A stretch of DNA of 64,000 bases from Escherichia coli (lineage in GTDB: Bacteria > Pseudomonadota > Gammaproteobacteria > Enterobacterales > Enterobacteriaceae), in NCBI RefSeq assembly GCF_030013205.1, contig NZ_CP122648.1. One strand, given 5' to 3'. Positions within the stretch are counted from its first letter, which is position 1. Each line of letters opens with the position of its first letter. Below are positions 1,994-26,070 of the stretch, one piece after another. The notes below the pieces were generated by a model, which saw only the letters and a program-made list of their open reading frames with translations, was not told the DNA's origin and did no database searches. The position numbers were made by a program, and so were the translations under genes.

Positions 1994-2189
1994 GACTGCT
2001 TTACACAACCTTTTTGCACGTCTTTTCCCCAGGCGCGCGGCAAAAGAATACTTGTACCAGGGCAAAGGATCGTTTTCGGATGGAATAATCTTCTTCCATA
2101 ACCATTTGAATACAAAATAACTTTATCTCAAACCGTTATCATTTTGACTAAAGTCAACGAAAATAATATTGCCGCCTTGAAGAAAGGAG

Positions 2190-2211
2190 GTATAATCCGT
2201 CGATTTTTTTT
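2190..2211 (+). promoter_or_regulatory. upp promoter -10 (tataat) and initially transcribed GATTTTTTTTG tract (UTP-sensitive reiterative transcription)
   Basis: tataat at 2190..2195 followed by gaT8g at 2201..2211, ~28 nt upstream of upp ATG; matches the described upp start-site selection mechanism. Confidence 0.6.
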
Positions 2212-2238
2212 GTGGCTGCCCCTCAAAGGAGAAAGAGT

Positions 2239-2950: not shown

Positions 2951-4240
2951 ATGACGCGCCGTGCTATCGGGGTGAGTGAAAGACCGCCACTTTTACAGAC
3001 AATCCCGCTTAGTTTGCAACATTTGTTCGCCATGTTTGGTGCAACCGTCCTGGTGCCCGTCTTATTTCATATTAACCCGGCGACTGTACTGTTATTTAAC
3101 GGTATAGGAACACTGCTGTATCTCTTCATCTGTAAAGGGAAAATTCCGGCTTATCTTGGTTCCAGCTTTGCCTTTATTTCACCGGTATTGTTACTGTTGC
3201 CGTTAGGGTATGAAGTCGCGCTGGGCGGCTTTATTATGTGCGGCGTGCTGTTCTGCCTGGTTTCTTTTATCGTGAAGAAAGCGGGGACCGGCTGGCTGGA
3301 CGTGCTGTTTCCACCTGCGGCAATGGGCGCAATCGTTGCCGTCATCGGTCTGGAGCTGGCGGGCGTAGCTGCCGGTATGGCGGGTTTACTCCCGGCTGAA
3401 GGGCAAACGCCAGACTCCAAAACCATCATCATCTCCATTACCACCCTGGCGGTTACGGTTTTAGGTTCCGTGCTGTTTCGTGGTTTCCTGGCAATTATCC
3501 CGATTTTAATTGGCGTGCTGGTGGGCTACGCGCTCTCTTTCGCAATGGGAATTGTCGATACCACGCCGATTATTAATGCTCACTGGTTTGCGCTGCCAAC
3601 TCTCTATACGCCGCGCTTCGAGTGGTTTGCCATTCTGACTATTCTACCAGCGGCGTTAGTGGTTATTGCCGAACACGTAGGGCACCTGGTGGTAACGGCT
3701 AATATCGTCAAAAAAGATCTGCTGCGCGATCCAGGTCTGCACCGTTCGATGTTTGCTAACGGCTTGTCGACCGTGATCTCCGGCTTCTTTGGCTCCACGC
3801 CAAATACCACCTACGGGGAAAACATTGGCGTGATGGCGATCACCCGTGTTTACAGTACCTGGGTTATCGGCGGGGCGGCGATTTTCGCTATCCTGCTTTC
3901 CTGCGTCGGTAAACTGGCTGCTGCTATCCAGATGATCCCATTGCCGGTGATGGGCGGCGTTTCGCTGCTGCTTTATGGTGTCATCGGTGCTTCCGGTATT
4001 CGTGTTTTGATCGAATCGAAAGTGGATTACAACAAAGCACAGAACCTGATCCTGACTTCCGTGATTTTGATCATCGGTGTCAGTGGCGCGAAGGTAAACA
4101 TCGGCGCGGCGGAGCTGAAAGGTATGGCGCTGGCGACCATCGTCGGTATCGGCTTAAGTTTGATCTTCAAACTGATTAGTGTGCTGCGCCCTGAAGAAGT
4201 GGTGCTGGACGCAGAAGACGCGGATATAACAGACAAATAA
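2951..4240 (+). CDS. uraA: uracil:proton symporter (NCS2 family)
   Basis: 429 aa starting [21 protein letters not shown]; multi-TM; RBS at 2937..2944. Confidence 0.95.
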
Positions 4241-8327: not shown

Positions 8328-9175
8328 TTAGGGTTCCTGACGTAAATAAATAGCCCGATAACAAATACTCACCAGCACTGCACCGCCGATAATATTACCC
8401 AGCATCACCGGGAGCAGATTGGCGGTAATAAAATGGCTGACCGTCAGTGCCGGAAAATTGTCTGCGCTACTGTGCGCCAGTTGCCAGAAGGGGGAGGGGC
8501 GAAATGGCGAATGGCAATGGCGAACGGAATCACAAACAAATTGGCGATACAGTGCTCAAAGCCACTGGCGACAAACAGGGTGATGGGCAAAATCATGGCG
8601 ACGATTTTGTCGCATAATGAACGCCCGCAATAACTCATCCACAGCGCCAGGCAAACCATCAGATTGCACATAATGCCGAGGCTGACAGATTCAGTAAATG
8701 TATGATGCATTTTGCCCTCGGCGCAGTGTAAAACCGCGACTCCCCACATCGCGTTTTCACTCATCACCAGCCCGGAAAACCAGATTAACAAACTGAAACA
8801 GGCAATACCTGCCAGATTACCGCAGGCCACCAGAAGTGCATTAATCAGCCATGTTCGCCAGCTAATAACGCCCCGACTTTTTGCCATCACCGTCATTACC
8901 GACGAGGTGAACAGGCTGGTGCCGCAAACCGCCAGCAAAATAAAGCCGAGTGTAAAGCAAAGGCCACCCACCAGATGGGTTAATGCCTGTGAAGACGGGG
9001 CATCGGCGATAACGGAAAGGTAAAAAGTAAATCCGATCGCCATAAACACGCCAGCGGACATCGCCATTAAAAAGACCGACACTTTGCTGCGGGCAATTTT
9101 ATGGGCGGCAATCCGTTCAGCGATTGCCGCTTTTCTGGCGCTCAACTGCAAGTCGAAAGAGAGTTTGTTTCTCAT
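8328..9175 (-). pseudogene. focB: formate channel FocB (FNT family) with apparent -1 frameshift near 8485..8495
   Basis: ORF stops at 8444 after 243 aa; the conserved FNT C-terminus (FWQLAHSSADNFPALTVSHFITANLLPVMLGNIIGGAVLVSICYRAIYLRQEP) continues in another frame to stop at 8328. Confidence 0.65.
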
Positions 9176-25361: not shown

Positions 25362-26070
25362 TGCACAGAAAACCCCCAGCTAGGCTGGGGGTTCCGGAAA
25401 GCTTTCAGCTTTGAGCCAGTTATTAAAACCCCTTTTGATTTGTTAAAACACCTTGCGGTCTGGCAACTGCAAGTGTCAAACAAGAAATCAAAAGGGGGTC
25501 CCAATGGGGAACGAAAAGAGCTTAGCGCACACCCGATGGAACTGTAAATATCACATAGTTTTTGCGCCAAAATACCGAAGACAGGTGTTCTACAGAGAGA
25601 AGCGTAGAGCAATAGGCAGTATTTTGAGAAAGCTGTGTGAGTGGAAAAGCGTACGGATTCTGGAAGCTGAATGCTGTGCAGATCATATCCATATGCTTGT
25701 GGAGATCCCGCCCAAAATGAGCGTATCCGGGTTTATGGGATATCTGAAAGGGAAAAGCAGTCTGATGCTTTACGAGCAGTTTGGTGATTTGAAATTCAAA
25801 TACAGGAACAGGGAGTTCTGGTGCAGAGGGTACTACGTCGATACAGTGGGTAAGAACACGGCGAAGATACAGGATTACATAAAGCACCAGCTTGAAGAGG
25901 ATAAAATGGGAGAGCAGTTATCGATTCCCTATCCGGGCAGCCCGTTTACGGGCCGTAAGTAACGAAGTTGGATGCAAATGTCAGATCGTGTGCGCCTGTT
26001 AGGGCGCGGCTGGTAAGAGAGCCTTATAGGCGCATTTGAAAAACCTCCGGCTATGCCGGAGGATATTTAT
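25362..26070 (+). mobile_element. IS200-family (IS200/IS605) insertion sequence, ~0.7 kb; boundaries approximate
   Basis: Perfect palindrome cccccagc-tag-gctggggg at 25373..25391, RBS-occluding pairing ccccttttgatt(25429..25440)/aatcaaaagggg(25486..25497), 152-aa Y1/HuH transposase, subterminal hairpin cctccggc-tat-gccggagg at 26044..26062. Confidence 0.8.
25504..25962 (+). CDS. tnpA: IS200 transposase TnpA (HuH Y1 family)
   Basis: 152 aa MGNEKSLAHTRWNCKYHIVFAPKYRR...HIHMLVEIPP (HuH motif)...catalytic Y region; ORF-track upstream extension discarded. Confidence 0.9.
   Translation: MGNEKSLAHTRWNCKYHIVFAPKYRRQVFYREKRRAIGSILRKLCEWKSVRILEAECCADHIHMLVEIPPKMSVSGFMGYLKGKSSLMLYEQFGDLKFKYRNREFWCRGYYVDTVGKNTAKIQDYIKHQLEEDKMGEQLSIPYPGSPFTGRK

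Follow-up and report, generated by a model that had tools for sequence, protein, structure and literature searches.

The T8 tract at the upp-uraA promoter of Escherichia coli: identity with the published K-12 element and conservation of its geometry in Enterobacterales

A run of eight T residues at positions 2204–2211 (plus strand) was found at the upp-uraA promoter in a 64-kb window of the E. coli chromosome, which is the whole stretch of DNA examined in this study. The T-tract element is real and had been read correctly from the sequence; it is also already known, being part of the published upp-uraA promoter, as the sequence-only reading had itself pointed out. The site almost certainly represents the sigma-70 promoter and the initially transcribed region (ITR) of the upp-uraA pyrimidine-salvage unit, in which a UTP-sensitive choice between transcription starts at G2202 and A2203 is coupled to non-productive stuttering of U residues in the T8 tract. 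The anatomy of the site, its identity with K-12, the mapped G start, the unstructured leader and the conservation across species come from the present analysis; the dependence on UTP and what becomes of A-initiated transcripts are taken from the literature. The system belongs to textbook gene control, in that RNA polymerase senses its own substrate without a repressor, and the promoter sequence alone indicates that upp-uraA of this strain is wired like that of K-12. What we add is modest, namely a cross-species tabulation, allele frequencies within E. coli and a set of natural variants that can be used as tests of the model. The comparative data show a strict geometry of -10 element, 5 nt, GA and T run across Enterobacterales, together with natural variation of the run between T7 and T9.

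The upp-uraA locus and the anatomy of its promoter

The gene layout was taken from the RefSeq annotation of a strain that is 100% identical to the first 8,494 bases of the window. In this annotation, upp encoding uracil phosphoribosyltransferase (2239–2865) and uraA encoding uracil permease, the second gene of the unit (2951–4240), lie on the plus strand and are followed by hda on the same strand. purM (877–1914) and purN (239–877) were found on the minus strand, and purMN is thus divergent from upp-uraA. Both pyrimidine-salvage genes controlled by the promoter, upp and uraA, are located directly 3' of it. The 1,031 bases around the tract matched 5,424 of 5,426 complete E. coli genomes (at least 80% of the length at no less than 95% identity), and those matches carry the upp and uraA annotation downstream of the tract.

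The sequence at the site reads ggTATAATccgtcGATTTTTTTTGtgg, and the plus strand from 2189 to 2214 is GGTATAATCCGTCGATTTTTTTTGTG. A consensus scan recovered a sigma-70-like promoter with 10 of 12 consensus matches, which is composed of a -35-like hexamer, TTGCCG (2169–2174; weakly conserved across genera), a 16-nt spacer and a -10 hexamer of perfect consensus, TATAAT (2191–2196), the latter being equally evident in the sequence. The -10 element is followed by a C/G-rich discriminator of 5 nt, CCGTC (2197–2201), which places the starts 6 and 7 nt after the -10 element. Two adjacent purines stand there as candidate starts, G2202 and A2203, and the long T run begins directly after the A. G2202 corresponds to the 5'-RACE start of upp in MG1655 (see below); the A start was placed from the sequence, its role being that of the published model. 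The T8 tract, which lies on the non-template strand, is a slippage-prone homopolymer where repetitive U addition would occur, as indicated by the sequence together with the published ITR. The rest of the leader (2212–2238) opens with the closing G at 2212 and carries the Shine-Dalgarno motif AAGGAG (2226–2231). As the upp ATG is at 2239, a transcript begun at G2202 has a leader of 37 nt. All of these elements are on the plus strand.

The sequence-only reading had assigned the feature to 2190–2211, a span that proved to be correct with only the closing G2212 left out. Its statement that the tract lies directly downstream of TATAAT stands in part: the tract is downstream, but not directly, because 5 nt separate the -10 element from GATTTTTTTTG.

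T8 runs as such are not unusual in the window, which contains six of them against 4.6 ± 2.5 expected. A single copy of the composite TATAAT-N5-GATTTTTTTTG was found in the 64 kb, and none arose in 100 dinucleotide shuffles. Since the T8 run alone is as frequent as expected, it is the position relative to the -10 element and to the gene that makes it significant, rather than the homopolymer as such.

Two further candidates in the promoter region were rejected. For a second promoter with TTGACT (2144–2149) as its -35 element, no acceptable -10 element was seen by eye at a distance of 16–18 nt and none was returned by the scan. The AGGAGG at 2185–2190, considered as a ribosome-binding site, stands before the mapped start and is not kept in other genera.

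Identity with the K-12 promoter and the mapped start site

In an alignment with K-12 GM4792, the window is identical from position 2165 into upp, and the MG1655 sequence covering about 2163–2251 agrees with the window as well. Beyond this stretch, on its 5' side, a few SNPs set the strain apart from K-12, the closest being at 2164, 5 nt upstream of the -35 element. A K-12 knockout primer in PMC11200800, GGTATAATCCGTCGATTTTTTTTGTGGCTGCCCCTCAAAGGAGAAAGAGT, equals window positions 2189–2238. The ITR of upp-uraA has been published as 5'-GATTTTTTTTG (PMC7039003); the comparison with the published upp promoter, which had been suggested as a check, therefore yielded base-for-base identity with K-12 and the same GATTTTTTTTG.

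The literature places this promoter among the first cases of UTP-dependent reiterative transcription (PMC6245113), and upp-uraA is classed with pyrBI and codBA as a reiterative-transcription promoter (PMC7039003). Promoters of the upp-uraA kind give rise to long reiterative RNAs with no switch back to normal transcription (PMC7039003). At codBA and upp, the stuttering is set off indirectly, via start-site switching stimulated by excess UTP, and the outcome is non-productive reiterative initiation (PMC12709180). The original studies of the upp promoter, as cited in these papers, are those of Tu & Turnbough 1997 (J Bacteriol 179:6665) and Cheng, Dylla & Turnbough 2001 (J Bacteriol 183:221), the title of the latter stating that a long T-A tract is required. 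The proposed match to the known UTP-responsive mechanism of upp-uraA is thus borne out by the ITR in PMC7039003, the start-site switching in PMC12709180 and the identity with K-12.

An independent genome-wide start-site map is provided by Kim et al. 2012 (PMC3415461, supplement), who used a modified 5' RACE with deep sequencing. Before the comparison with this supplement, we had computed that the G of GATTTTTTTTG corresponds to NC_000913.3 position 2620909, or 2618931 in the older numbering, and the offset of the older numbering was confirmed by the supplement row that gives upp as 2618268–2618894 (PMC3415461). In the supplement rows for this gene, the upp start stands on the minus strand of NC_000913 at 2618931; it is backed by 194 reads and leaves a 5'UTR of 37 nt, and the promoter string given for it ends in ...GGTATAATCCGTCG and the upstream string in ...GGAGGTATAATCCGTCG (PMC3415461). 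As the start of Kim et al. is 2618931, the stable upp mRNA begins at window position 2202. Published mapping of the start elsewhere had been named as what would speak against the sequence-only reading; in the rows for upp, it falls on G2202 instead.

A model for UTP-dependent expression of upp-uraA

In the published mechanism, which we adopt here, RNA polymerase would start at either of the adjacent purines 6 or 7 nt after TATAAT, i.e., G2202 or A2203. High UTP would favour the A start, and the short nascent AUUU... transcript, pairing weakly with the A run of the template, is expected to slip back so that U is added repeatedly. The AUUUU(n) products would be released without ever yielding mRNA. 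At low UTP, initiation at the G would prevail, and normal elongation would proceed into the upp-uraA mRNA. Pyrimidine scarcity would then raise expression without a repressor protein or a leader RNA structure. UTP would be sensed mainly by the choice between the G and A starts, the stuttering being limited to A-initiated transcripts. Tu and Turnbough, in their study of 1997, are said to have named the two starts 'G6' and 'A7'; high UTP reportedly favours A7, whose transcripts are said to stutter and abort, and low UTP reportedly favours G6, which is said to give the productive transcripts.

In the 5'-RACE dataset, only the G start is reported for upp (PMC3415461). The G start alone is what the model predicts in such data, because the A-initiated products would be short and never mRNA. 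The G-only data are by themselves no positive evidence for the A start.

Conservation of the promoter geometry across species

Loci of upp were sought in GTDB representative genomes, one for each species, by means of a degenerate DNA pattern that encodes the Upp peptide HPLVKHKLG, and at least 120 were obtained. As the scan was keyed on the Upp coding sequence, it is unbiased for the leader. The Enterobacterales set comprised 62 species, 60 of them named and two represented by MAGs assigned from the upstream sequence. For each locus, we tabulated whether a -10 element, 5 nt, two purines and a T run stand in this order. The species are related, and the counts given below are thus not independent events.

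Among the matches listed, the module was found in 58 of 62 Enterobacterales species with runs of T6–T9, in two of three Aeromonadales (T5 and T7), in 11 of 12 Vibrionaceae at the proximal TATAAT (T3–T4), in 9 of 12 Pasteurellaceae (T3–T4) and in one of 31 species from other taxa (T7). The script counted 12 of 12 for Vibrionaceae, which includes one locus, L074, via an upstream TAGAAT-N5-AA-TTTG only. In shuffled controls, fewer than one match was expected per group. The typical form is TATAAT-N5-GG-TTTG in Vibrionaceae (e.g., L013, L027, L029, L062 and L063) and TAGAAT-N5-GA-TTTG in Pasteurellaceae (e.g., L014, L022, L040 and L117).

Within Enterobacterales, and again among the matches listed, the -10 element is a perfect TATAAT in all 58 species that carry the module, 53 of 62 have exactly G-A followed by T7–T9, and the run is T7–T9 in 56 of 62 and T6 in two more. 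In the genera sampled, the discriminator is invariably 5 nt long and reads CCGTC, CCGGC, CCCGC or CTCGC in these matches. The distance from the -10 element to the start is invariant in the 58 of 62 species, and the spacing between T run and ATG ranges from 32 to 43 nt in the 56 with G at position 6 (all among the matches listed) and is 39 nt in the two Arsenophonus. The fixed spacing to the -10 element, together with the drifting distance to the ATG, indicates that the position of the tract is set by the promoter and initiation rather than by the ribosome-binding site and translation. We also prepared a conservation profile from one sequence per genus (28 genera), covering 75 nt from 45 upstream to 24 downstream of TATAAT. 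The most conserved part of the 75 nt was the block that begins with the A-rich stretch ahead of the -10 element and ends with the T run, and the leader varies between genera in both sequence and length. The comparative data support a constraint on the module of -10 element, 5 nt, purines and T run.

Several species counted within the 58 depart from the common GA form. Photorhabdus has GG-T7, Ca. Pantoea persica has G-T8 without the A, and Arsenophonus has AA-T6. In the one genome of E. albertii (NBRC 107761; L021), the region about 37 nt upstream of upp reads TATAAT-CCGTC-T-A-T8, and a T thus stands where the published model has the productive G start. The exceptions among the matches listed are four of 62, namely Plesiomonas, two species of Pectobacterium and Brenneria. 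Plesiomonas has TTTT-A-TTT. Pectobacterium (L059 and L081) and Brenneria (L126) have a different upstream sequence; they lack TATAAT-N5-GA and carry GCG-TTTTTT-G some 40 nt ahead of the ATG, with G+C-rich repeat-like sequence in front of it. To judge from these sequences, the upp promoter seems to have been remodelled in Pectobacterium and Brenneria.

Length variation of the T tract within E. coli

The length of the tract in E. coli was counted with exact-match queries of about 95 nt, in which one difference lowers the identity below 99% and the genome is not counted. The leader with T8 was found in 4,731 of 5,424 genomes (87%), that with T7 in 439 (8.1%) and that with T9 in 19 (0.35%); many of the T9 genomes listed are O157:H7. 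As a control, we used the T8 of the terminator between upp and uraA, at a distance of 700 bp. Its 95-nt stretch was identical in 5,244 of 5,425 genomes, and any difference is thus confined to at most 181 genomes (no more than 3.3%).

The four T7 genomes that we aligned represent no fewer than three flanking haplotypes. T7 was found in the older finished genomes S88, IHE3034, UM146, APEC O18 and NU14, a group which we take to be the ST95 complex, and in the type strain ATCC 11775. It was also found in a set of clinical genomes of about 4.8 Mb, which presumably resemble ST167-type clones. We read T7 as a real heritable allele with more than one origin, assembly error being possible for some of the genomes. 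As T7 or T9 is normal in other genera, every length observed in E. coli is probably functional.

It is attractive to speculate that the natural variation has functional consequences, i.e., that T7, which is fixed in some lineages of E. coli, the rare T9 and the G-to-T change of E. albertii shift the basal level or the UTP threshold of uracil salvage, and that upp of Vibrionaceae and Pasteurellaceae is under a three-T switch of the pyrBI type in place of start-site switching at a long tract. We regard this as a tentative idea and rather unlikely.

Alternative explanations of the T tract

Four other explanations of the tract were weighed, and all of them fit the data poorly. U-rich leaders can bind ribosomal protein S1, and the U-rich 5' end of the upp transcript might act mainly after transcription, as an S1-binding translational enhancer or a stability element. 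The tract does stand at the extreme 5' end of a short leader, and this leader is unstructured: the RNA from 2202 to 2260 showed no fold beyond those of shuffled sequences (MFE -7.5 kcal/mol, z = +0.87). Nevertheless, the spacing of 5 nt plus 2 to the -10 element is fixed in 58 of 62 species among the matches listed while the distance to the ATG drifts over 32–43 nt, and published work assigns the tract to reiterative transcription (PMC7039003, PMC12709180). We give a mainly post-transcriptional role a very slim chance; a secondary role of this kind is conceivable. Alternatively, the T8 could provide the U-tail for intrinsic termination or for attenuation of the kind seen in the pyrBI leader, or it could belong to a riboswitch-like leader, and the second T8 of the locus (2903–2910) indeed tails a strong hairpin. 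However, no G+C-rich hairpin precedes 2204–2211 and the consensus scan detected no terminator-like site there. The tract is at +2/+3 of a transcript whose start was mapped at 2202, so that no upstream RNA is available to fold. A riboswitch or curated leader RNA was likewise rejected, as no Rfam family was matched near upp at the gathering threshold in the 64-kb window and the z value of the leader fold was that given above. A terminator or riboswitch reading retains next to no probability.

The frequency of T8 in the window, being that expected by chance, would also suit an AT-rich stretch that lies beside the promoter without any function. Against such a coincidence, the composite with the -10 element is unique in the window, the fixed spacing is kept across about 28 genera, and the element has been characterised experimentally, reportedly including mutational work; we regard its probability as practically nil. 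The tract could finally be a mutable contingency homopolymer, whose changes among T7, T8 and T9 tune or switch upp-uraA between lineages. The 439 T7 and 19 T9 genomes among 5,424, the occurrence of T7 on at least three flanking haplotypes and the difference of an equally long T8, 700 bp away, in 181 genomes at most would all suit this explanation. On the other side, 87% of the E. coli genomes have T8, and a clonal pattern of T7, if the sequence types that we presume are right, would run counter to rapid switching. In other genera, each of T7, T8 and T9 is a normal state, and the lengths are thus probably within the functional range; some of the indels may be assembly errors. We consider a contingency tract very unlikely.

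Comparison with other reiterative-transcription promoters

The reading that we prefer, a UTP-sensitive start-site choice coupled to stuttering in the T8 tract, is that of the K-12 upp-uraA promoter. The latter is the same element, identical from the -35 hexamer through the start codon, with the same ITR, mapped start and genes. The codBA promoter follows the same logic, combining UTP-sensitive start-site switching with non-productive U-stuttering in a long T run (PMC12709180, PMC7039003). Its ITR is 5'-ATTTTTTG, with T6 in place of the T8 at upp (PMC7039003). codBA, the operon for cytosine permease and deaminase studied by Qi & Turnbough 1995, lies outside the window.

The promoters of pyrBI and carAB P1 also show UTP-dependent reiterative transcription at the transcript start, with no regulatory protein for this step (PMC12709180, PMC7039003, PMC6245113). 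They have only three T's (AATTTG in pyrBI and GUUUGC in carAB P1) in contrast to the T8 of upp, and high UTP triggers the stuttering directly, without start-site switching (PMC12709180). In pyrBI, a distinct attenuator follows further downstream. With their T3–T4 runs, the upp promoters of Vibrionaceae and Pasteurellaceae resemble this short-tract type in sequence. In Bacillus subtilis, pyrG likewise senses a nucleoside triphosphate by reiterative initiation at a homopolymer (PMC12709180, PMC7039003). It senses CTP and adds G's at a GGG tract, whereas upp senses UTP. The stuttering at pyrG is productive, in that the extended transcripts resume synthesis and their poly-G acts as an antiterminator, whereas the upp products are dead ends (PMC12709180, PMC7039003).

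Other features of the locus and the window

Upstream of the promoter, we noticed a perfect 14-bp palindrome, TTGACT-AA-AGTCAA (2144–2157), with its centre some 51 bp upstream of the upp start. Six of seven aligned E. coli sequences have it unchanged, and a GATC-N3-(G)ATCA that resembles it loosely stands at this place in other genera. A perfect 12-bp palindrome, GCAAACGTTTGC, was found in the purM-upp intergenic region at 1980–1991, about 22–33 bp upstream of the purM start that we place from the data of Kim et al. (2619175). This palindrome presumably resembles the PurR operator of purMN.

Between upp and uraA, a terminator-like hairpin followed by the second T8 tail (2903–2910) occupies 2881–2910 on the plus strand (-15.2 kcal/mol, z = -5.1). 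The start-site supplement also gives a uraA start inside upp with a 427-nt 5'UTR (PMC3415461), which falls near 2476–2526 of the window. With the hairpin and the internal start, uraA may have sources of transcription other than read-through from the upp promoter.

The sole Rfam match in the window was the Hfq-binding RNA STnc490, at 25371–25494 with 146 bits. The window is out of register with the related strain after position 8494. A closely related strain has an annotated IS200C transposase gene just after the STnc490 position, between bamC and purC, and the STnc490 match is probably the leader of an IS200 element, as far as the annotation of the related strain indicates.
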